Assembly (NCBI GenBank): GCA_963720755.1
Contig: CAVRGP010000014.1
Span: 1-21,725 of the forward strand
DNA length: 21,725 bases
DNA from: an uncultured Chloroflexia bacterium
Lineage (GTDB): Bacteria > Chloroflexota > Limnocylindria > Limnocylindrales > CSP1-4
Direction of reading: 5' to 3'
Shown here: one piece after another, positions 588 through 12,460 of the stretch
How positions within the stretch are numbered: the stretch's first letter is position 1
Layout: each line of letters opens with the position of its first letter
The notes under the pieces: generated by a model
Database searches by the model: none
The model's input: the letters and a program-made list of their open reading frames with translations, nothing else
Told to the model about the DNA's origin: nothing
Made by a program: the position numbers and the translations under genes

Positions 588-2029
588 CGTCCCCCGAGTG
601 CGGCCAGCGCCTCGATCCCCGGCAGTCGTCGTGGATCGGCGACGGCGCCGGCGATGGCGCTCGCGGCGGCGGTCAGCGGCGAGGCCAGGAACGTTCGGCC
701 GCCCTTGCCCTGCCGCCCCTCGAAGTTGCGGTTGCTGGTGCTGACGGCGTATTGGCCTGGCTCGAGTTGGTCACCGTTCATGGCGATGCACATCGAGCAC
801 CCGGCCTCGCGCCAATCCGCACCGGCCGCCTTGAAGATCTCGTCCAACCCCTCGCGCTCGGCCTCGCGCTTCACCTCGTCCGAGCCCGGCACGACCATCA
901 GCCGGACGCCATCGGCGATGTGGCGATCCTTGAGCACGGCCGCCGCGAGTCGAAGGTCGCTGATCCGGCCATTGGTGCAGCTCCCGACGAACACGACATC
1001 GACCTTTTGGCCGAGGATCGGCTGGCCGGGGTGAAGGTCCATGTAGTCGAGGGCGCGCTCGAGCGCCCGTCGTTGGCTGGGATCGTCCAGGTCCCCGGGC
1101 GAGGGGACCGGACTGGAGATCGGGATGCCCATCCCCGGGTTGGTGCCGTACGTCACCATCGGTTCGAGTTCGTCGGCGTCGATCGTGATCGACCGGTCAT
1201 ACGTCGCGCCATCGTCGGTCGGAAGGCTGCGCCAGCGGGCGACCGCGGCGTCCCAGGCGGCCCCGGCCGGTGCGTGCTTTCGGCCGTGCAGGTAGTCGAA
1301 GGTCGTGTCGTCGGGGGCGATCAGGCCAGCCCGGGCGCCGCCCTCGATGCTCATGTTGCAGATGGTCATCCGTTGTTCCATGGACAGGCCGCGGATGGCC
1401 GTGCCCGAGTACTCGAACACATGCCCGGTCCCACCGCCGATCCCGATCCGGGCGATGAGCGCGAGGATGATGTCCTTGGCGCTGACGCCTGGGGCCAGGT
1501 GGCCGTCGACCCGGACCTCGAACGACTTCGGGTCGCGCTGGAGGAGGGTCTGGGTGGCCAGGACCATCTCCACCTCGCTCGTCCCGATCCCGAAGGCCAG
1601 GGCGCCGAACGCGCCGTGCGTGCTGGTATGCGAGTCGCCGCACACGATGGTCATCCCCGGCTGGGTCAGCCCAAGCTGCGGGCCGATGACGTGGACGATC
1701 CCCTGGGCCGGATCGCCGATGCCATGAAGCGGGATCCCGAATTCGGCGCAGTTGGTCTCGAGCTGGTTCACCTGGGCCAGGGCCATCGCGTCGACGAACG
1801 GCAGGCTTCGGTCGGTCGTCGGGATGGAATGATCGGCGGTCGCGACGGTCTGTCCCGGGCGTCGGACCGTCAGGTCGCGCGCGCGCAACCCGGAGAAGGC
1901 CTGCGGACTGGTGACCTCGTGGACGAGATGGAGGTCGACGGCGAGGACCGCGGGTGCTCCAGGGTCCTGGGTCACCACGTGATCGGCCCAGATCTTGTCG
2001 ACGATGGTGCGTGGCTCGGTGGCGGTCAT
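584..2029 (-). CDS. leuC: 3-isopropylmalate dehydratase large subunit (4Fe-4S, aconitase family)
   Basis: Motifs [58 protein letters not shown]. Start placed at ATG 2029 (or 2032), where homology begins ([14 protein letters not shown]), not at 2104. Confidence 0.97.
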
Positions 2030-2035
2030 CATCGG

Positions 2036-2044
2036 AGCGTACCA
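2036..2044 (-). promoter_or_regulatory. Extended -10 promoter (TGG-TACGCT) for a probable leaderless leuCD mRNA
   Basis: The minus strand reads TGGTACGCT-CCGATG-ATG: a TGn+TAnnnT element ending 6 nt before ATG 2029, with no Shine-Dalgarno sequence. Confidence 0.6.
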
Positions 2045-2095
2045 GAGGCTCGGCCGAGACTCCGGAGGCGGTCGAACCAGGACCATCGAGTGCGG

Positions 2096-2123
2096 TTGAC
2101 GCATCGGCGAAGCCTGCTAGACT
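2096..2123 (+). promoter_or_regulatory. Sigma70-type promoter of the ilv-leu-cim operon
   Basis: TTGACG (2096-2101), a 16-nt spacer ending in TGc, then TAGACT (2118-2123). Predicted TSS is near 2130. Confidence 0.75.
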
Positions 2124-2170
2124 GCCGCCACGCCACGGGACGGCTGTGGCCGAACATCCTGGAGACCCGA

Positions 2171-2371
2171 TTGGGCTGGTTCGGATCCGAAGATCGCCGC
2201 AAGGTCGCCGTCGTCGTGACGTCGGATGGCCGGCGCGTCCACGTGCCGATCGATCCCGTCGATGTATCGCTCCTCGACCTTCTTCTCGCGCTTCCGGGGC
2301 TTGGCGGCCTTCTTGGGCTGATTACCGGCTCCCGGCGGGACCGAGGGACACGGAGGGACGAGCGGCGGTAG
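2171..2371 (+). CDS. Putative ilv/leu attenuator leader peptide, 66 aa: MGWFGSEDRRKVAVVVTSDGRRVHVPIDPVDVSLLDLLLALPGLGGLLGLITGSRRDRGTRRDERR
   Basis: GGAG (2161-2164) lies 6 nt before TTG 2171. The ORF has 8 Val, 10 Leu and 2 Ile codons, and 6 of the 10 Leu codons are CTT. TAG 2369-2371 lies 22 nt before a terminator hairpin. A shorter start at GTG 2243 is possible. Confidence 0.7.
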   Translation: MGWFGSEDRRKVAVVVTSDGRRVHVPIDPVDVSLLDLLLALPGLGGLLGLITGSRRDRGTRRDERR

Positions 2372-2409
2372 CTCGACACCACCGATCAACCTCAGGACCC
2401 TCGCCGGGA
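2330..2409 (+). promoter_or_regulatory. Putative antiterminator helix
   Basis: TCCCGGCGGG (2330-2339) can pair with CTCGCCGGGA (2400-2409): 10 bp with one G-U. This would sequester the 5' arm and loop of the terminator. Confidence 0.6.
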
Positions 2410-2431
2410 CGGCGGGGGTCTTTCGTTTTTT
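2394..2431 (+). terminator. Intrinsic terminator (attenuator) upstream of ilvB
   Basis: Stem AGGACCCTCGCCG / CGGCGGGGGTCTT (2394-2406 / 2410-2422) runs into TTTCGTTTTTT (2421-2431). It lies between the promoter and the ilvB RBS. Confidence 0.9.
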
Positions 2432-2459
2432 CCGGACACCACACGGAGGACCCGACCAG

Positions 2460-4334
2460 ATGACGATCGCCAAGGGAGATCCGACGGAACCGTCGCGGGT
2501 GACGGGGCGGTCGGCCACGCGGCGCAACCACGTGCCCAACGATGGGACGGCCGAAGCTGCCGCCGTCGAGCGCGCCCGAAAGAGCATGCTCCACGAGGGC
2601 CGCGACCTGAAGCGGACACGGATCGGGGCCGACGTGCTCTGCGAGGCGCTCCTTCGTCAGGGGGTCGATGTCTTCTTCAGCTATCCCGGCGGGGTGATCC
2701 TGCCGCTGTACGACATCCTGGCCGACTACCCGGAGTTGCGACACATCCTGGTCCGCCACGAACAGGGTGGCGCGCATGCGGCTGACGGGTATGCCCGGGT
2801 CACGGGCCGGGTGGGCGTGTGCATGGGGACGTCGGGACCGGGCGCCACGAACCTGGTGACCGGGATCGGGACGGCCATGCTCGATTCGATCCCGATGGTG
2901 GCCATCACCGGCAATGTCATGGCGGCGCTCATGGGCAAGGACGCTTTCCAGGAGATCGACATCAACGGCATCACCCTGCCGATGACCAAGCACAACTACC
3001 TGGTCCGCGATGCCGACGAGTTGCCGCGCGTCATCGCCGAGGCCTTCCACATCGCCCGGAGTGGTCGTCCCGGTCCGGTTCACATCGATATCGCCAAGGA
3101 CGCCCTCCAGCAGGAGACACGGATCAAGCACCCGAGCGAGGCGGAGGTGGTCGCGGGCCTGCCTGGGTTCAGGCCGAACCTGGATGGCCATCCACGCCAG
3201 CTCAAGCTCGCGGCGGCCGAGATCGCCGTGGCACAACGGCCGGTCATCCTGGCCGGGCACGGCATCCTCCACGCGGAGGCCTGGGACGACCTGGTCGCCT
3301 TCGCCGAGCGATCGCAGATCCCGGTCGCCTGGACGCTGCTCGGCATCGGCGCGATCGATGAGGACCACCCGCTTGCCTATGGCTACATGGGGATGCACGG
3401 CTGGAAACATGTCAACCGGGCGATCCAGACGGCCGACCTCCTGATCGCCGTCGGGATGCGCTTCGATGACCGGGTGACCGGCAACGTACGGACCTACGCG
3501 CCGTATGCCCGCATCATCCATGCCGACATCGACCCCGCCGAGATCGGCAAGAACGTCGCCGTCGAGGTCCCGATCGTGGGCGATGCGAAACGCGTGCTCC
3601 AGGCCTTGACCGGCCTGATCGACAAGGTCGATCCCTCGACACGCACCGGGTACTTCGCCCAGCTCGCGGAGTGGAAGCAGGACTCGGTGGCGTCGAGTTG
3701 GCACGGCTCCGGCGCCTGGCAGGCAGGGTTGTTGTCGGCCGATTATGTGGTCGAACGGATCGGAGCCCTGACCGACCACGAAGCGACCTACGTCGCCGAC
3801 GTCGGTCAGAACCAGATGTGGTTGGCCCGATACACCGGGTTCCGGAACCCCAACAGCCACGTCAGTTCCGGCGGCCTCGGGACCATGGGGTTCTCGGTCC
3901 CGGCGGCCATGGGCGCGGCGCTCGGCCGGCCCGATCGGGAGACCTGGGCGATCACCGGGGACGGCGGGTTCCAGATGACGTTCCAGGAGCTCATGACCCT
4001 CGTCGCCGACCATATCCCGGTGAAGATCGCCCTGCTCGATAACAAGAAGCTCGGGATGATCCGGCAATGGCAGGAGATCATCTACGCCGGCAACTACCAC
4101 TCATCCAGCCTGCCCGGACCGGACTTCGCCAAGCTTGCCGATGCGTTCGGGATCCCCGCCTTCCGGGCCAGGACCCCCGATGACGTGGACGGGGCGATAC
4201 GGGCCGCCCAGGCCGTCGACGGCCCGGCGCTCATCTGGTTCGAGATCGCCGAGGAGCAGAATGTCTTCCCGATGATGCCCGCGGGCAAGGGTTTGTCCGA
4301 CCTCATCGAGACGTGGGGCGGGCCGGACGAATGA
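2460..4334 (+). CDS. ilvB: Acetolactate (acetohydroxyacid) synthase large catalytic subunit
   Basis: YPGG, catalytic RHEQGG, TSGPGATN, GMHG, RFDDRVTG, and the ThDP motif GDGGFQM...DNKKLGMIRQWQ. RBS GGAGG at 2445-2449. Confidence 0.97.
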   Translation: MTIAKGDPTEPSRVTGRSATRRNHVPNDGTAEAAAVERARKSMLHEGRDLKRTRIGADVLCEALLRQGVDVFFSYPGGVILPLYDILADYPELRHILVRHEQGGAHAADGYARVTGRVGVCMGTSGPGATNLVTGIGTAMLDSIPMVAITGNVMAALMGKDAFQEIDINGITLPMTKHNYLVRDADELPRVIAEAFHIARSGRPGPVHIDIAKDALQQETRIKHPSEAEVVAGLPGFRPNLDGHPRQLKLAAAEIAVAQRPVILAGHGILHAEAWDDLVAFAERSQIPVAWTLLGIGAIDEDHPLAYGYMGMHGWKHVNRAIQTADLLIAVGMRFDDRVTGNVRTYAPYARIIHADIDPAEIGKNVAVEVPIVGDAKRVLQALTGLIDKVDPSTRTGYFAQLAEWKQDSVASSWHGSGAWQAGLLSADYVVERIGALTDHEATYVADVGQNQMWLARYTGFRNPNSHVSSGGLGTMGFSVPAAMGAALGRPDRETWAITGDGGFQMTFQELMTLVADHIPVKIALLDNKKLGMIRQWQEIIYAGNYHSSSLPGPDFAKLADAFGIPAFRARTPDDVDGAIRAAQAVDGPALIWFEIAEEQNVFPMMPAGKGLSDLIETWGGPDE

Positions 4335-4942
4335 CCGCCGATCCGACTTCCGTGCCCTCCGAACCGTCGACGCCTGCCGAGCGGCTGCCGGCCCACAGCG
4401 CGCCGCCGGACCGGGCCCTTCCCGGTGGCGGCGCGACCCGCCGACATGTCCTCGTGGCTGTCGTCCTCAACAAGCCGGGCGTCCTCAACCGCGTCGCCAG
4501 CCTGATGCGCGCCCGCAACTTCAACATCGACTCCCTGGCGGTCAGCCACACCGACCGTGAGGACATCAGCCGGATGACGATCACCCTCCACGGAGACGAT
4601 GTCGCCGTGGAGCAAGCCGCCAAGCAGCTCTACCGGCTGATCGACGTGCTCAAGGTCCAGGACGTCACGTCCGAGGCGACCATCCAGCAGGAGCTCGCCC
4701 TGGTCAAGATCCGGGCGACCGACTCGACCCGGGCCGAGGTCCTCAAGCTCGTGGAACTATCGCGCGGCCGGGTCGTGGATCTGGCCGACGGCTCGGTGAT
4801 CGTGGAGGTGACCGGGACCGAAACCGAGGTCGACGCGTTCGTCGCGCTGGTCCGGACCTATGGCATCAAGGAATTGGTTCGGACGGGCGCCGTCGTCATG
4901 GCGCGCGGATCCGGATCCATCGAGGAGGCGATCAAGCGATGA
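4331..4942 (+). CDS. ilvN: Acetolactate synthase small regulatory subunit (ACT domain)
   Basis: NKPGVLNRV...[31 protein letters not shown] 4331 overlaps the ilvB stop (ATGA). Confidence 0.95.
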
Positions 4943-5991
4943 CGGCGACGATGTACTACGACAACGATGCGGATCCGGCGGCGCTGGCCGGCCAGACCGT
5001 CGCGATCATCGGGTACGGCAGCCAGGGCCATGCCCACGCACTCAACCTCCACGAGTCGGGCGTCGATGTCGTGGTCGGGCTCGCTCCCGGGTCGAAGAGC
5101 CGCCAACTCGCCAGCGACGCGGGCCTCCGGGTGGCCGACGTGCGCGATGCCGTCAAGGCCGCGGACGTCGTGATGATCCTGGTCCCGGACACAGCCCAGA
5201 AAGCGGTCTACGACGAGGAGATCGCGCCCGAGCTGCGGCCCGGCCATCTGCTGATGTTCGCCCACGGCTTCAACATCCATTTCGGACGGATCGATCCGCC
5301 CGCCATCGTGGATGTCGGGATGATCGCGCCGAAGGGTCCCGGCCATCTGCTTCGATCGGTCTACCGGTCGGGCGGTGGCATCCCCGCCCTGTTCGCCGTC
5401 CATCGGGACCCATCGGGCACGGCGCGAGCTCGGGTCCTCGCCTACGGCCGGGCGATCGGATCGACCCGGGCGGGGGTCCTCGAGACGACGTTCGCGGAGG
5501 AGACCGAGACCGACCTGTTCGGCGAACAGGCCGTTCTGTGTGGCGGGACCGCCGCCCTCGTGAAGATGGGCTTCGAGACCCTCGTCGAGGCCGGTTACCA
5601 GCCGGAACTTGCCTACTTCGAGACGATGCACGAGCTCAAGCTCATCGTCGACCTGCTGTATCGCGGCGGCCTGAACTTCATGCGCTTCAGCGTCAGCGAC
5701 ACCGCCGAGTACGGCGATTACGTGTCGGGCCCGCGGATCATCGATGACCATGTCCGGGCGACGATGAAGCAGGTGTTGACCGAGATCCAGGATGGGACGT
5801 TCGCCCGGAACTGGATCGCCGAGAGCGAGTCCGGGCGCAAAGAGTTCGAGCGCCTGCGCGCGGCCGATCGCGACCATCTCGTCGAGCGCGTCGGGGCCCG
5901 GCTGCGCGGTCAGATGCCATTCCTCGATCCGATCGAGGTCACCGCCGGTCAGTCCCAGGCGTCCGCCACGACGCCCGGCGCGGCCCGGTGA
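4939..5991 (+). CDS. ilvC: Ketol-acid reductoisomerase (short class I)
   Basis: [59 protein letters not shown] overlap with ilvN. Confidence 0.97.
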
Positions 5992-7628
5992 GCACCGCCG
6001 TACCGCGGCCCGCCGGCCCATTCGTGGCGGCGGGCAGCGTCCGCATCTTCGACACGACCCTGCGCGACGGCGAACAGGCCCCCGGCGCGGGCCTGACCGC
6101 TGCCGAGAAGCTCGACGTAGCCCGCCAACTCGTGCGCCTCAAGGTGGACGTCATCGAGGCTGGCTTCCCGGCAGCATCGCCGGGCGACTTCGAAGCGGTC
6201 CGCCGGATCGCCCAGGAGACCCGCGGCGGCATCGCGGTCGCGGCCCTGGCTCGCTGCAAGGACGGTGACCCGCAACGGGCGATCGAGGCGATCAAGGTCG
6301 CCGAACGACCCCACCTGCATGTCTTCATCGCCACCAGCGACATCCACCTCAAGCACAAGCTTCGGATCGACCGTGAGACGGCCCTGGCCGAAGCCGTTCG
6401 GTGGGTCCGGCACGGTCGGGAGCGACTCGGCCGGGACGCCGAGATCGAGTTCTCCGCTGAGGACGCGTCCCGAACCGACCTCGACTACCTCCTCCAGGTC
6501 TACGAAGCGGTCGTGGAAGCAGGCGCATCCACGGTCAACATCCCCGATACGGTCGGCTACGCCATCCCGTCCGAGTTCGGGGCGCTCGTCGAACGCGTCG
6601 TCGGGCTGGTGGGGGACCAGGCCACGGTCAGCGTCCACTGCCACAACGACCTGGGGCTGGCGACCGCCAACACCCTGGCCGCCGTCCAGGCCGGCGCTCG
6701 CCAGGTCGAGGTCACGATCAACGGCCTTGGCGAGCGTGCCGGCAACGCGTCGCTCGAAGAGGTCGTGATGTCGTTGCGGACCCGTCCGACCCAGTTCCCT
6801 GACCTCGGCTCCGGTATCGCCACCGAGCAGCTCACCGCCGCCAGCCGGCTGGTCAGCTATCTGACCGGTTTCGCCATCCAGCCGAACAAGGCGATCGTCG
6901 GCGGTAATGCCTTCGCCCATGAGTCGGGGATCCACCAGGACGGCGTGATCAAGAACCCGCTGACCTACGAGATCATGACCCCGCAATCGGTCGGCCTGTC
7001 GGGCAGTCAGCTGACCATCGGCAAGCTGTCCGGCCGCCGTGGCCTGCAGGGCAAGCTCAAGGAGCTCGGATACGACTACGAGGGCGAAGCCCTCGACGAG
7101 ATCTATGCCCAGGCCGTGGCCCTCGCCGATGCCAAGAAGGAGGTCACCGACGCGGACCTCCACGCGCTGGTCGAACAGCGTTCCTCAGAGGTGCCTGCCT
7201 CGGTCGCCCTCGTCGGCTGGAGCGAGACCTCCTCGCACGGTGGGCATGCCACCGGATCGGTCACCGTGTCGATCGGCGGCGCGGAGCGGGCCGCCGAGGC
7301 GACCGGCAACGGGCCGGTCAACGCGCTCTTCGGTGCGGTCGATCAGGCGCTCCAGCCGGTCCTCGGCTGGCACCCGACGCTGACCGAATACGAGATCAAG
7401 GCGGTGACCGCCGGTGAGGATGCCCAGGGCCAGGTCCTGGTGCGCTGTCGACGCTCGTCCGATGAGGGACCTGGAGCGTTGGTCGTGACCGGACATGGGT
7501 TATCGACGAACATCATCGAGGCATCACTCGAGGCGTATCTCGTCGCCGTCAACAAGTTGCACGGTGCCGAGATCAACGGTGTCGCGGTCGCCTTCGTCGC
7601 GCCGCGGATCAACGAGTCCGCCCCGTGA
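5988..7628 (+). CDS. leuA: 2-isopropylmalate synthase
   Basis: [47 protein letters not shown], and a C-terminal regulatory domain (GNGPVNA...NIIEAS). GTGA overlap with ilvC. Confidence 0.96.
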
Positions 7629-8806
7629 CCACGGCTCGGCCCAGCTACCAGGTCGCCACGATCCCCGGCGACGGCGTCGGGCCCGAGGTGGTGTCCGCCG
7701 CACGACGCGTCGTCGATGCGGCGGGAGAGCGGTTCGATTTCGCCGTCGACTGGTCCGAGTACATCGTTGGCGGCGCGGCGATCGACACCTTCGGCGTCGC
7801 CATCCGAGGTGAGGACGTCACTGCCTGTGGCGCTGCCGATGCGATCCTGCTCGGGGCGGTCGGCGGTCCGCGATGGTCCGACCCGAACGCCGCCGTGCGG
7901 CCGGAACAGGCGCTCTTCGCCCTTCGCGGCGGACTCGGCCTGTTCGCCAACCTGCGCCCGATCCGAGTCTACGAAGCACTGGCCGGCGCCTCGCCGCTGC
8001 GTCCCGAGCTGCTTGCCGGGGTCGACATGCTCATCGTTCGTGAGCTCACCGGCGGCGTCTATTTCGGAGCCCGCCAGGAGGCCACCGGCGAACCGGGCGC
8101 ACGGACCGCCCTTGACACGTTGCCGTACGCGGAGGATGAGATCGCGCGGATCGTTCGCCTCGCCTTCGAGCAGGCCCGCAGTCGTGGCGGCCACGTCACC
8201 CAGGTCGACAAGGCCAACGTCCTCGCCACGTCGCGGCTGTGGCGGCGGGTGACCGATGAGATCGCTGCCGACTATCCCGACGTGCGCCTCAACCATCAAC
8301 TCGTGGATTCTTGCGCCATGCTGCTGGTCCGGCGCCCGGCCGACTTCGATGTCATCGTCACCGAGAACCTGTTCGGCGACATCCTGTCCGACGAGGCGGC
8401 GGTCATCGCCGGGAGTCTCGGCGTGCTGCCCTCGGCCTCGCTCGGAGAGCGGCGGACGGCCCATGGGATCTTCGGCCTGTACGAGCCGATCCATGGTTCC
8501 GCGCCGGATATCGCAGGGCAGGATATCGCCGACCCGATCGGCACGATCCTGTCGGCGGCGATGCTGCTCGAGACCTCGCTCGGTCGATCTGACGCGTCTG
8601 CCGCGATCCGATCGGCCATCGGCCAGACGCTCGACGATGGCTGGCGGACTGCCGACCTGGCCGACCCGGCCGATCCCACCGACGGGCTCGTCGTGCTCGG
8701 GACGACCGCCTTCGCGACCGCGGTGATCGAACGGATGTCAGGGGTCGAGCGCGGTCGGCGGGCTACCGGCAAGACCGCCCGGGCGACCATGGGGGCGGCG
8801 TCGTGA
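7625..8806 (+). CDS. leuB: 3-isopropylmalate dehydrogenase
   Basis: PGDGVGPEV, LLGAVGGP, ANLRP, RELTGGVYFG, DKANVL, NLFGDILSDEA, EPIHGSAPDIAG. GTGA overlap with leuA. Confidence 0.96.
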   Translation: MTTARPSYQVATIPGDGVGPEVVSAARRVVDAAGERFDFAVDWSEYIVGGAAIDTFGVAIRGEDVTACGAADAILLGAVGGPRWSDPNAAVRPEQALFALRGGLGLFANLRPIRVYEALAGASPLRPELLAGVDMLIVRELTGGVYFGARQEATGEPGARTALDTLPYAEDEIARIVRLAFEQARSRGGHVTQVDKANVLATSRLWRRVTDEIAADYPDVRLNHQLVDSCAMLLVRRPADFDVIVTENLFGDILSDEAAVIAGSLGVLPSASLGERRTAHGIFGLYEPIHGSAPDIAGQDIADPIGTILSAAMLLETSLGRSDASAAIRSAIGQTLDDGWRTADLADPADPTDGLVVLGTTAFATAVIERMSGVERGRRATGKTARATMGAAS

Positions 8807-10512
8807 CGACGGCACCGCCCGGCCCGCGCCCGGTCGTCCTCTACGACACGACCCTCCGCGACGGCACGCAGGGGGAGAACATCACGCTGTCCCTGGCCGA
8901 CAAGCTCCGGGTCGCCAGGATGCTCGATGAATACGGGATGCCATTCATCGAGGGTGGCTGGCCCGGCTCCAATCCCAAGGACATCGACTTCTTCGCCGCG
9001 GCCCGCAAGATCCCATGGGAGCAGGCCCGACTGGCAGCCTTCGGGATGACCCGCCATCGCTCCAACCGTCCCGAGGACGACTCGAACCTTCGCGAGCTGG
9101 TCGCCGCCGAAACTCCGGTCGTGACCATCTTCGGCAAGAGCTGGCTGCTCCACGTCACCGAGGTCCTGGGGGCCACAGCGCCGGAGAATCTGGACATGAT
9201 CGCCGACTCTGTCGCCTTCGTGGCAGAGCGAGGCCGCGAAGTGGTCTACGACGCCGAGCACTTCTTCGATGGCTACAAGGATGACCCCGCATACGCACTG
9301 GCGACCCTTCGAGCCGCTCGGCAGGCCGGTTCGCGGACGCTGGTCCTGTGCGATACCAATGGCGGGACCCTGACCGACGAGCTGGTCGAGATCGTCCACG
9401 ACGTGCGAACCGCCGTCGACGCGGACCGCGACGCACCCGAGGTCAGCTGGGGGATCCACACGCACAACGATGCCGATCTCGCGGTGGCCAACACGATCGC
9501 GGCGGTGGCCGCCGGCGTCCGGCATGTCCAGGCCACGATCAACGGGTACGGCGAGCGTGCCGGCAACGCCAACATGGTCAGCATCCTGGCCAATCTGGCC
9601 CTCAAGACCCCGCACGAGCTCGTGCCCGCCGGCGGCGGGACGTTGGCCGATCTGACCGAGCTCTCGCGCTCGGTGGCCGAGATCGCGAACGTCGTCCCCA
9701 ACGACTATCAGCCATACGTCGGGCGTTCAGCCTTCGCCCACAAAGGCGGCGTCCACGGCGCGGCCGTGGCTCGTGTCGAACGGAGCTATCAGCACGTTGA
9801 CCCGTCGTCCGTCGGGAATGCCGGCCGGCTCGTCGTCTCCGAACTCGGCGGTCGCGCCAATATCTCGATCCGCGCCCAACAGCTCGGGCATGAGCTCGAA
9901 GGGGTGGTGGATCCGCGCGAGTTGTCCATCTTGATCAAGGAACTCGAGGCCGATGGGCTGGCCTTCGAGGGCGCGGAGGCGAGCTTCGAACTGCTCATCC
10001 GGCGCCACGCCGCCGACTACGTCGCGCCATTCCGGATCGTGGACTACACCTGCCTGATCGAGCAGCGAGCCGGACAGGAACTGCTGGCGGAGGCGACCGT
10101 GAAAGTCGAGGTCGATGGCGAGATCCTGCATACCGCAGCCGATGGGAACGGGCCGGTCAACGCCCTGGATGCCGCCGTCCGCAAGGCGCTCCGAGCGTTC
10201 TATCCGGCGCTCGAACAGGTCCATCTGGTCGACTACAAGGTTCGGATCCTTGACGGCGGCGCGGCGACGGCGGCGCGGACCCGGGTCATCATCGACTCGA
10301 TGGACGGCGCGCGCACCTGGTCCACGATGGGAAGTGACACGAACATCATCGCGGCATCGGCGACAGCCCTTGCCGACTCCCTCGAATACGCGATCTGGAA
10401 AAGTGGTTCCGAGTTGCTCCGCCGCGACGAGCGCCACTTCACGACCGCACCGGAAACGGGCCCGACCGACCGAGCGGGGAGCCACGGCGCCACAGCCAAC
10501 CCACGGAGGTGA
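8803..10512 (+). CDS. cimA: (R)-citramalate synthase
   Basis: DTTLRDGTQGE, GGWPGSNPKD, YDAEHFFDGYK, LCDTNGG, HTHND, AFAHKGGVH, GYGERAGN, FEGAEASFEL, DYKVRIL. These motifs are characteristic of the bacterial CimA subfamily of DRE-TIM enzymes. Confidence 0.92.
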   Translation: MTTAPPGPRPVVLYDTTLRDGTQGENITLSLADKLRVARMLDEYGMPFIEGGWPGSNPKDIDFFAAARKIPWEQARLAAFGMTRHRSNRPEDDSNLRELVAAETPVVTIFGKSWLLHVTEVLGATAPENLDMIADSVAFVAERGREVVYDAEHFFDGYKDDPAYALATLRAARQAGSRTLVLCDTNGGTLTDELVEIVHDVRTAVDADRDAPEVSWGIHTHNDADLAVANTIAAVAAGVRHVQATINGYGERAGNANMVSILANLALKTPHELVPAGGGTLADLTELSRSVAEIANVVPNDYQPYVGRSAFAHKGGVHGAAVARVERSYQHVDPSSVGNAGRLVVSELGGRANISIRAQQLGHELEGVVDPRELSILIKELEADGLAFEGAEASFELLIRRHAADYVAPFRIVDYTCLIEQRAGQELLAEATVKVEVDGEILHTAADGNGPVNALDAAVRKALRAFYPALEQVHLVDYKVRILDGGAATAARTRVIIDSMDGARTWSTMGSDTNIIAASATALADSLEYAIWKSGSELLRRDERHFTTAPETGPTDRAGSHGATANPRR

Positions 10513-10516
10513 CTCG

Positions 10517-11047
10517 ATGAGCGATCCTGCGGGCGATGTCCTGCATCTAGCCCGATGGACAGCCGCGTCCGGCAGCAACACGCGCAGCCGCGGTGCGGTC
10601 GTGATCGCGTCTGGAGACCACGAATGGCGAGCGTCGGCTGAAGGCAACGGCCCGATCGACGCGCTGTATCGCGCCGTGGACGAGGCCGTCGACAGCGTCC
10701 TGACCGGCCATCCACGACTGCTCGCCTACGACATCCACGCCCTGGGCGAGGGAACCGATACGATCGGCGTGGTGGCCGTGCGGATCGCACCGCCGGATGT
10801 CGGCGGGCAGCGCGGCACTGGCGAATACGCCGGCGAGGCCCGTGGTCCGAACATCATCGCCGCGTCGATCGAGGCGTACGTCGCGGCGATCAACCTGATG
10901 TTGGCCGAAGCGCACTGGAAAGGTGCGACCGAGGCGGCCGGGAACCGTCGTGGCGCCTCCGTCCCGGCCGGCGTCGCCCGCGAGGAGCGGGCGGACCTCG
11001 ACGAGGACGAAGTGCCCCACGACACGACGGCCTGGTTCGAGCGGTAG
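10517..11047 (+). CDS. Stand-alone LeuA allosteric (regulatory/dimerisation) domain protein, 176 aa, with an acidic C-terminal tail
   Basis: Strong RBS GGAGGT (10505-10510) 6 nt before ATG 10517. Motifs GNGPIDALYRAV and NIIAASIEAYVAAIN align with the C-terminal domains of LeuA and CimA in this window. There is no catalytic TIM barrel. Confidence 0.88.
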   Translation: MSDPAGDVLHLARWTAASGSNTRSRGAVVIASGDHEWRASAEGNGPIDALYRAVDEAVDSVLTGHPRLLAYDIHALGEGTDTIGVVAVRIAPPDVGGQRGTGEYAGEARGPNIIAASIEAYVAAINLMLAEAHWKGATEAAGNRRGASVPAGVAREERADLDEDEVPHDTTAWFER

Positions 11048-11114: not shown

Positions 11115-11146
11115 ATGGTTCACGACCAAACTCATTGAGGCTGACC

Positions 11147-11578
11147 ATGACCCGCATCTTCGCCGCCCTGGCCGCCCTGGCCCTCGTCCTCACCGCCTGC
11201 TCCTCGTCCGGTTCCGGCGTGTCCAGCGCCGATAGTGCTGCGTTCTGCACGACGCTCGCTCAGTACACCCAGTCACTGACCGACTTCAAACAACTCCCCG
11301 CTGACGCCACGGTCGCCGACTACCAGGCGGCCGCGACCGACGTGAAGGTCCAGCTGGCCGCGCTCACCGCCGCGTCGGGCGACTACGTCGGCGCGCAACT
11401 CCAGGAACTCCAGACGGCCCAGGACGACCTGGTCGCCGCGACCGAGGGGCTCACCGCCAATTCGACCCCGGCACAGTGGCAGGCCGCGACGTCGTCGGCG
11501 CTGGACGACGTGATCGCCGCAGCCGCAGGGCTCGAGCTGGCGGAATGCAACACGACACCGACACCGTCCGCGGGGTAG
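11147..11578 (+). CDS. Hypothetical lipoprotein, 143 aa
   Basis: Signal peptide MTRIFAALAALALVLTA followed by lipobox LTAC, a Ser/Gly linker, and an Ala/Thr/Gln-rich helical body with two more Cys. RBS GAGG at 11137-11140. Confidence 0.8.
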   Translation: MTRIFAALAALALVLTACSSSGSGVSSADSAAFCTTLAQYTQSLTDFKQLPADATVADYQAAATDVKVQLAALTAASGDYVGAQLQELQTAQDDLVAATEGLTANSTPAQWQAATSSALDDVIAAAAGLELAECNTTPTPSAG

Positions 11579-11602: not shown

Positions 11603-12460
11603 ATGGCTGCTGATCGCCGGACGCGATCGATCGCCTATGCGGGCGAACCGGGGGCCTTCGCGGAAGACGCGGTCCTCGCCGCGTTCGGCGACATCGAGCG
11701 CATCCCGCTCGCTGGCTTCCGGGCGGTCTTCGAGACCGTCGCGTCTGGTGGCGCCATGGCCGGGGTCGTCCCGATCGAGAACGTCATCCACGGCACGGTC
11801 CGTGAGAACTACGATCTGCTGCTCGAATACGACCTGACCATCCACGGCGAGGTGGTCGTGCCGATCCACCTTTGTCTTGCTGCGTTACCCGGCCAGGGCC
11901 TCGACGACATCGGTCGGATCTATTCGCACATCCAGGCACTCGGCCAGGCCGAGGGGTTCCTGCGTCGCCGGCCCTGGCAGCTGCTGACGACATACAACAC
12001 CGCGGGAGCGGGCAAGACGATCGCCGACACCGATGAGCGCGGTGCGGCCGCGGTCCTCTCGCCCCGGGCAGCCGGCCTGTTCGGGCTGGAGATCCTCGCC
12101 GACGAGATCGGTGACCTGCCAGACAACCGGACCCGGTTCCTGATCGTGGGGCGCGACGGCATCGACGAGCCGAGCGGGCTCCGGTCGCCGGGTGCCCAGC
12201 GGCGGACGACCCTCGTCGTTGCCGTGAGGAACGAACCCGGGGCGTTGCTCGCCGTGCTCACGGTCTTCGCGGACCATCGGCTCAACATGCGCAAGCTCGA
12301 GTCACGCCCGAGCCGCCAGCGCGCCTGGGAATACGTGTTCTGGATCGACCTGGACGCGGACACCGCCGACCCGTCCACGGCGGCGGCTCTCGATGCCCTG
12401 CGCGCGGTCACAACGACGACGCGCGTCCTCGGCAGCTACCTCGCCGCACCTGGAGCCTGA
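11603..12460 (+). CDS. pheA: Prephenate dehydratase (PDT + ACT, no chorismate mutase domain)
   Basis: AYAGEPGAF, VVPIEN..HGTV, SHIQALGQ, catalytic NRTRF, ACT-domain NEPGAL and LESRP. Confidence 0.93.
   Translation: MAADRRTRSIAYAGEPGAFAEDAVLAAFGDIERIPLAGFRAVFETVASGGAMAGVVPIENVIHGTVRENYDLLLEYDLTIHGEVVVPIHLCLAALPGQGLDDIGRIYSHIQALGQAEGFLRRRPWQLLTTYNTAGAGKTIADTDERGAAAVLSPRAAGLFGLEILADEIGDLPDNRTRFLIVGRDGIDEPSGLRSPGAQRRTTLVVAVRNEPGALLAVLTVFADHRLNMRKLESRPSRQRAWEYVFWIDLDADTADPSTAAALDALRAVTTTTRVLGSYLAAPGA

Follow-up and report, generated by a model that had tools for sequence, protein, structure and literature searches.

A predicted ribosome-mediated, multivalent attenuator before ilvB in uncultured Limnocylindrales, whose long leader carries a conserved N-terminal motif

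How does an uncultured Chloroflexia bacterium of the Limnocylindrales (CSP1-4) control a long run of genes for branched-chain amino acid (BCAA) synthesis? The question is raised by the first 21,725 nucleotides of contig CAVRGP010000014.1 (assembly GCA_963720755.1), the whole stretch analyzed here and called the window, in which an unannotated open reading frame (ORF) precedes ilvB. The answer favored here, with a probability of about 0.88, is a ribosome-mediated, multivalent transcription attenuator, as read from the sequence and from folding models. A BCAA-enriched upstream ORF (uORF) with a start, an intrinsic terminator and a mutually exclusive antiterminator are all present, and in the folding model a stalled ribosome frees the antiterminator while a passing one blocks it. 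The first-pass annotation of this DNA had proposed such a device, sensing leucine, as new to the lineage and to a cimA-containing operon; the lineage and the gene run appear to be new settings, but the mechanism itself is textbook. The unusual part is the N-terminal extension of the leader.

The elements of the leader region all lie on the + strand. Homologues were compared in an alignment of 120 leaders from loci L001-L143, excluding 9 sister-family loci (handled apart), 5 duplicates, 1 second copy, one diverged leader (L133), one broken leader (L142), 4 loci at contig ends and 2 with an unparsed ilvB segment. A sigma-70-type promoter with an extended TG (TTGACG-N16-TAGACT, 2096..2123) is the sole promoter-like site within 1500-3000, against 0.2 ± 0.4 in shuffles, and its spacing places the transcription start probably at A2130. 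TAGACT occurs 5′ of 86 of the 120 homologous leaders, and of the 73 that share its spacing, 64 have a −35-like hexamer. The transcript would open with a hairpin (2132..2150, −12.1 kcal/mol) before the leader Shine-Dalgarno sequence; the corresponding hairpins of homologues vary in sequence (median z-score −1.5, below −1 in 45/73). The Shine-Dalgarno GGAG (2161-2164) and the TTG start at 2171 together span 2161..2173; GGAG or GAGG is found in 113/120 homologues, and the start column holds TTG in 67 leaders, GTG in 38 and ATG in 14. The leader ORF (2171..2371) comprises 66 codons, within a range of 52-76 among homologues, ends in TAG at 2369-2371 and encodes MGWFGSEDRRKVAVVVTSDGRRVHVPIDPVDVSLLDLLLALPGLGGLLGLITGSRRDRGTRRDERR. 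Its richest 20-codon stretch contains 12 Leu, Ile or Val codons, a value reached by 0/1000 dinucleotide shuffles (mean 6.6). Two segments stand out within it: an N-terminal motif at codons 9-27 (RRKVAVVVTSDGRRVHVPI, 2195..2251), a predicted β-hairpin written with the common Val codons GTC and GTG, and a regulatory block at codons 32-51 (2264..2323), with Val GTA at 2264, six Leu CTT codons at 2279-2314 and Ile ATT at 2321.

The switch itself occupies the 3′ part of the leader region. Protector arm 1 (2285..2299) can pair with arm 2 (TCCCGGCGGG, 2330..2339), and this pairing forms the interior of an extended hairpin that spans about 2265-2370 (−53 kcal/mol). Alternatively, arm 2 can pair with CTCGCCGGGA at 2400-2409, in the 5′ arm and loop of the terminator, to give the antiterminator (10/10 pairs). 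The intrinsic terminator (2394..2431, −23.2 kcal/mol) consists of a 13-pair stem (2394-2422) and an interrupted U tract at 2421-2431 (TTTCGTTTTTT), and is the only one within 1500-3000 (0.2 ± 0.4 in shuffles). It is followed by the ilvB ribosome-binding site (2445..2462), with GGAGG at 2445-2449 and ATG at 2460. The first-pass annotation had located the promoter, 5′ hairpin, TTG-initiated ORF, terminator and ribosome-binding site exactly here and had seen the alternative pairing of arm 2. It had also placed CCGGGG (2294-2299) correctly as arm 1, which lies in the inner protector, but these nucleotides are the Pro42-Gly43 codons between the Leu codons, not Leu codons themselves. TCGCCG, the sequence that forms the core of the terminator 5′ arm and is complementary to that of arm 2, occurs twice more at 2193-2213 (+); 92/120 homologues have one such copy or more and 34 have two, and ribosome-free folds leave them unused.

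Conservation of this layout extends across the family. Relatives whose IlvB is up to 93% identical are catalogued as Ca. Limnocylindrales or uncultured Chloroflexota, and an ilvB search of 60 relatives yielded 21 loci of the genus (the window's own included), every one with a 66-70-codon leader. A profile built from these 21 leaders matches 221 of 251 family genomes (three of them unpublished) in 46 of 49 genera; the host genome holds one copy. In a class-wide draw, a larger profile matched 57/60 family genomes and 0/7 of the sister family, and 133 genomes from three other families gave only matches at E >= 0.0019 with it (one unpublished genome among these weak matches). The long form of the leader is restricted to this family among the genomes searched. 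In the sister family, leaders are 39-40 codons long, leaderless and end in LI(Q/R)PR(R/Q)G-stop (9/9 loci), and the same arm-2/terminator pair lies behind them in all nine. Two further families of the class, in which 7/33 genomes had an ilvB match, show BCAA-rich leaders of about 24-46 codons with a hairpin and U tract at 7/7 ilvB loci, judged by eye. Outside the class, a rough scan of 27 loci, 2 of them not anchored, detected terminators at 7 loci and nearby uORFs rich in BCAA codons at 2.

At the RNA level, a terminator follows 120/120 leaders (median −23.8 kcal/mol) at 22-44 nucleotides past the leader stop. Together with the leader at 21/21 genus loci, this answers the doubt raised at first pass, that orthologous loci might lack a conserved BCAA-rich uORF or terminator. 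The antiterminator retains at least 9 of 10 pairs in 114/120. The arm-2 codons, ITGSRRE, are frozen at the nucleotide level (synonymous divergence pS 0.046 vs 0.35 in ilvB), and the diverged leader L133 reads the arm-2 nucleotides in a different frame; both observations indicate that what is conserved here is the RNA. Before the terminator is synthesized, arm 2 pairs upstream with Arg-Ser-Leu...Gly codons over at least 5 of its 10 nucleotides in 89/120 leaders, and it is these codons that the family-wide protector arm spans; the exact CCGGGG arm of the first-pass annotation varies among relatives.

The codons of the regulatory block are rare ones. In alignment columns 35-65, the share of GTA among Val codons is 56%, that of CTT among Leu codons 45% and that of ATT among Ile codons 63%, vs 0%, 5% and 4% in the N-terminal half of the leader and 1.8%, 5.7% and 1.2% genome-wide (1304 long ORFs). 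GTA is present in the 3′ half of the leader in 95/120 homologues and ATT in 110/120. The effect of a ribosome on these codons was modeled by equilibrium folds of the truncated RNA: the RNA downstream of the ribosome was folded with 7 nucleotides masked beyond the A-site codon, and the antiterminator was called at >=5 of 10 pairs. It was predicted in 41/120 homologues without a ribosome, in 37/120 with a stall in the N-terminal Val run, in 79/120 at the GTA column, in 116-119/120 at the Leu columns, in 118/120 at Ile and in 0/120 three codons later; in the sister family, the modeled switch-off falls at the same Ile in 9/9. By these counts, the stall window that opens the operon would start at GTA and end at ATT. 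This suggests that sensing is probably multivalent (Val, Leu and Ile): the freeing of the antiterminator by stalling, as first proposed, is borne out in the folding models, and the restriction to Leu gives way to a window from Val32 (GTA) to Ile51 (ATT). The N-terminal Val run was considered as a classical sensor and rejected, having common codons and no modeled switch.

The proposed mechanism would proceed as follows. RNA polymerase would start near 2130 and a ribosome would translate the leader. If the tRNAs for Val, Leu and Ile are charged, this ribosome would clear Ile51 and pass over arm 2 up to the stop codon, so that arm 2 would be covered, or would fold back into the protector once the ribosome has passed; the terminator would then form and transcription would end near 2427-2431. 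With one of the three amino acids short, the ribosome would wait at GTA (codon 32), at a CTT or at ATT (codon 51), covering arm 1 and leaving arm 2 free to capture the emerging 2400-2409, and the polymerase would read into ilvB. At equilibrium, the complete terminator is the more stable structure, and the switch would have to be kinetic. We infer leader translation, stalling, coupling, the termination site and the kinetic nature of the switch from this layout. The enzymes encoded by ilvB to cimA produce the amino acids that would be sensed, which fits an attenuator.

Several points weigh against this account. The zeros past Ile51 arise partly by construction, arm 2 being masked there, and when the model lets RNA pair across a ribosome that sits at the stop codon, the antiterminator persists in 41/120, as it does in the scan of the window itself. 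Once the terminator is complete, equilibrium prefers it even at the Ile51 stall (−46.7 vs −41.6 kcal/mol, the latter for the shorter RNA). Termination without a ribosome is predicted in 79/120 homologues, the antiterminator still winning in the other 41. Covariation, the check proposed at first pass, is sparse because the arms hardly vary: one position (position 3) shows a compensated C-G to U-A double change in 4 leaders of two genera, and an A-C mismatch is uncompensated in 7. The RNA of 2130-2440, whose folding was likewise proposed, is not unusually stable as a whole (z −1.58; 5/100 shuffles equally good). A similar ilvB leader of Streptomyces coelicolor did not respond to changes in its candidate regulatory codons (PMC1262725). 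Public RNA data hold contigs of relatives only (8 runs with shares of 0.05-0.07, 4 examined); the end of one contig falls at 2426 in two runs resembling one data set, and in another run the depth of leader contigs exceeds that of the following bins, neither being counted as evidence.

If attenuation accounts for the 3′ half of the leader, what accounts for its N-terminal half? Its conservation as a protein had been missed at first pass. The motif VAVVVTxDGRRVxVP lies within codons 9-27, outside the sensing window, and the pattern of substitutions makes it fairly likely to be under protein-level constraint. G20 is found in 120 leaders, D19 in 118, R21 in 115, R22 in 113 and P26 in 109, with 24-41 synonymous changes on the tree at each of these five codons, equal to invariant ilvB columns. 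The ratio of non-synonymous to synonymous change (dN/dS, pairwise counts over 39 sister pairs) is 0.12 for codons 19-26, 0.21 for codons 21-26, 0.28 for codons 12-27 and 0.47 for codons 2-8 and 9-18, vs 0.72 in the linker and 0.84 in the tail; ilvB stands at 0.04. The non-synonymous rate of codons 21-26 differs from that of the linker (Fisher p 2e-8), and changes within these codons follow a period of three (10.8/6.0/29.7 at positions 1/2/3). Strand 2 shows strict hydrophobic/polar alternation, and position 25 is Met in 29/120, so it is hydrophobicity that is kept rather than BCAA identity; in general, the hydrophobic positions tolerate Met, Phe, Tyr or Ala, and hardly ever a polar residue. 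The conservation of the motif is somewhat inflated, since most rows were collected with the leader profile; of 22 more genomes fetched by ilvB, 20 carry an intact, motif-bearing leader, 21 of the 22 being already matched by the profile. All indels among the 120 leaders preserve the reading frame. An antisense or other-frame ORF was rejected as the source of the codon pattern: the sense frame is open in 120/120, with 41 distinct octapeptides vs 82-115 in antisense.

Structurally, AlphaFold2 predicts strands at residues 12-16 and 22-26 (block predicted local distance difference test scores of 82 and 78) with two helices behind them, and a predicted template modeling score (pTM) of 0.29 conveys no confident tertiary fold or packing. 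The motif is always followed by 36-51 residues after P26. The ribosome exit tunnel holds about 30-35 residues; with at least 36 residues always present, the hairpin would lie outside the tunnel when the ribosome is at the stop codon, which is suggestive only.

The best-surviving explanation of this conservation is an addition to the attenuator rather than a substitute for it: a dual-function gene, in which the β-hairpin of residues 9-27 acts in cis or, as a released small protein, in trans. We regard it as a tentative possibility. In the cis version, the hairpin would clear the exit tunnel about when the ribosome meets the stop, and could thereby set its dwell or release time and hence basal read-through. 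Such a function would fit conservation of D19, G20, R21, R22 and P26 despite their many synonymous changes, the low dN/dS of codons 19-26 and 21-26 beside the linker and tail, the alternation in strand 2 with Met allowed, the predicted strands, and a C-terminal extension just over tunnel length. The motif is also retained in six near-leaderless versions. Set against this, the searches gave no homologue or fold match outside the family, the pTM is low, other families attenuate with short, motif-less leaders, and the motif has been lost in one genome (G186). Selection could serve no more than the solubility or degradability of a hydrophobic peptide, collection by profile favors rows that keep the motif, and D19-G20 (GAY GGY) are able to pair with the nucleotide-frozen codons 13-14. 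That the peptide has a regulatory function, or one in trans, is rather doubtful, and so, to a slightly greater degree, is the full bipartite reading, in which the Val/Leu/Ile codon sensor is joined to a protein-selected hairpin that would supply the attenuator with a second input or output (dwell tuning from the tunnel exit, or action after release on a BCAA enzyme or other partner).

Database searches placed the peptide in no known family. The window's peptide has no Pfam match (best E 0.042 across 120 members), and there was none in NCBIfam, nothing below E 0.03 in profile searches of the PDB and no usable match in the ESM Atlas. A search of 1.84 billion representatives gave 71 matches; among the 19 examined were 4 unrelated repeat proteins, and the other 15 resembled the leader or were mis-called read-throughs of it. 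A fold search with the weak model gave no match at Z >= 2 and is uninformative either way. A likeness to β-grasp or to the hairpin-helix of the LeuA regulatory domain was discarded (HHalign probability 0.1 and 0.4; ferredoxin E 0.87).

An effect of the RNA, with the peptide passive, is less probable still, and we consider it unlikely. Here GCCGUC (codons 13-14) and GAYGGY (codons 19-20) would form a pause hairpin, or the TCGCCG copies (codons 8-14) would protect arm 2 from a distance. The six pairs of the hairpin are 93% canonical, codons 12-14 have just 10, 10 and 4 synonymous changes where the Val/Ala columns of ilvB have 19-41, codons 19-20 use GAT and GGT in excess, and TCGCCG, the terminator arm core, recurs in 92/120. 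Covariation is absent, however: in rows where codon 14 encodes Ile, its partner is U 9 times and C 12 times, and Asp-Gly is kept in 35/37 rows whose pairs are broken. The hairpin exceeds a probability of 0.5 in only 24/120 folds, arm 2 is unpaired with the 5′ half in ribosome-free folds, and the period-3 pattern of codons 21-26 is left unexplained.

Control of the terminator by a riboswitch, T-box or RNA-binding protein, with the uORF incidental or just constitutively translated, has precedents in the codon-insensitive S. coelicolor leader (PMC1262725) and in guanosine tetraphosphate (ppGpp) riboswitches that regulate ilvB in some bacteria (PMC10272879), but is very improbable here, given that covariance models of T-box, ppGpp riboswitch and other Rfam leaders find no match in the window at gathering score (and two chance matches at E <= 5), that rare BCAA codons are conserved exactly inside the stall window, and that indels in the 120 leaders are all in frame.

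The diverged locus L133 (G186, 2280-2500, −) encodes a 71-codon leader without DGRR motif; it contains three GTA codons and more than one ATT, and its arm-2 nucleotides fall in another frame. Other genomes of the same genus have an ilvB match in 1/5 and a LeuA-type domain match in 1/8, and may be auxotrophs. Six of the 120 long leaders (L070, L093, L106, L107, L120, L134) start 5-11 nucleotides past TAGACT and keep the hairpin motif. At L173, L174, L175, L177 and L178, the ilvB leader promoter is preceded by a putative PucR-type regulator gene with a terminal motif resembling LFLHRNTVRQRL, and a GTGCACAG(T/C)GCAC element lies 5′ of the −35 box at L174, L175, L177 and L178.

Downstream of the leader, on the + strand, the window encodes ilvB (2460-4334), ilvN (4331-4942), ilvC (4939-5991), leuA (5988-7628), leuB (7625-8806) and cimA (8803-10512). 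All six pass NCBIfam cut-offs, in agreement with the names first given to them. They are followed by a gene for a stand-alone LeuA regulatory (allosteric, dimerization) domain (10517-11047, +; 176 aa with an acidic C-terminal tail; Pfam E 7e-22), and the overlaps and short gaps suggest that 2460..11047 would be co-transcribed. The stand-alone domain, possibly a trans-acting regulatory subunit, has close homologues in 26/40 family genomes, and is missing in 6 of them that do possess LeuA, as well as in 13/13 sister-family genomes. A partnership between it and the leader peptide is unsupported: it is absent from 6 hairpin-leader genomes and present in G186, which lacks the hairpin. Further 3′ on the same strand lie an ORF that looks lipoprotein-like by inspection (11135-11578) and a prephenate dehydratase gene (11603-12460). 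Divergent from the leader, leuC appears leaderless at its start (2027-2044, −), with TG-G-TACGCT six bases 5′ of its ATG at 2029, and has no space for an attenuator of its own; leuC was not found within the 1.5 kb fetched upstream of ilvB in 20 genus relatives. In the host genome, ARAGORN finds five Leu tRNAs and three Val tRNAs, each in a single copy, together with one Ile tRNA (GAU) and a tRNA for selenocysteine.

If correct, the attenuator brings a widespread, uncultured lineage within the range of classical attenuation, along with a run of genes in which citramalate synthase is encoded. It also points to a gene of 52-76 codons that is unannotated and present in most of the family's genomes. 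The potential surprise is purifying selection on a hairpin motif adjoining an RNA-constrained tail, as a passive leader needs no such motif; the motif-less short leaders of sister families provide natural controls. A full-text literature search, with most subscription papers outside its coverage, found nothing on such an attenuator specific to this lineage, and a second, of the same coverage, gave no case of protein-level selection on attenuator leaders among the matches listed. Lopatovskaya et al. (2010) reportedly may already list Chloroflexi ilv attenuators.

How does the locus compare with known systems? The ilv and leu leader peptides of Escherichia coli and Salmonella are about 28-32 residues long, and we know of no protein-level motif in them. 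With these systems (ilvGMEDA, ilvBN, leu), which are classed as ribosome-mediated attenuators, the present leader would share multivalent sensing through biased codons, the choice of codon setting sensitivity (PMC1183508). Attenuator leader peptides are generally held to be non-functional in trans, to which peTrpL of Sinorhizobium meliloti, a 14-residue peptide of the trp operon working in antibiotic-dependent ribonucleoprotein complexes, provides the precedent of a leader with a function of its own (PMC7298713); the likeness here is conservation as a protein, read from sequence (dN/dS 0.12-0.28 in the N-terminal motif). The ilvBNC attenuator of Corynebacterium glutamicum (IlvL; ilvB-II motif) has the same succession of BCAA-rich uORF, anti-antiterminator, antiterminator and terminator (PMC11857589). 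However, IlvL has 15 residues and begins one nucleotide past +1, and uORFs of the ilvB-II motif span 30-72 nucleotides, typically 15-17 codons (range 10-24) inside the P1 stem, although three ilvB-OMG uORFs are much longer (PMC10272879). Here the uORF has 52-76 codons among homologues and, in the window, 66 with a Shine-Dalgarno sequence and a stop 10 codons beyond arm 2, and the gene run includes leuA, leuB and cimA; the likeness is of layout. In Mycobacterium tuberculosis ilvB1, as here, a ribosome on regulatory codons that include GUA permits the antiterminator and one reaching the stop permits a Rho-independent terminator. There (PMC13236596), a leader transcript of about 120 nucleotides carries four regulatory codons (LVVI) and the stop-codon ribosome masks the antiterminator directly, whereas the present leader would spread the same logic over about 300 nucleotides, with a 20-codon sensing block and a stop beyond arm 2.

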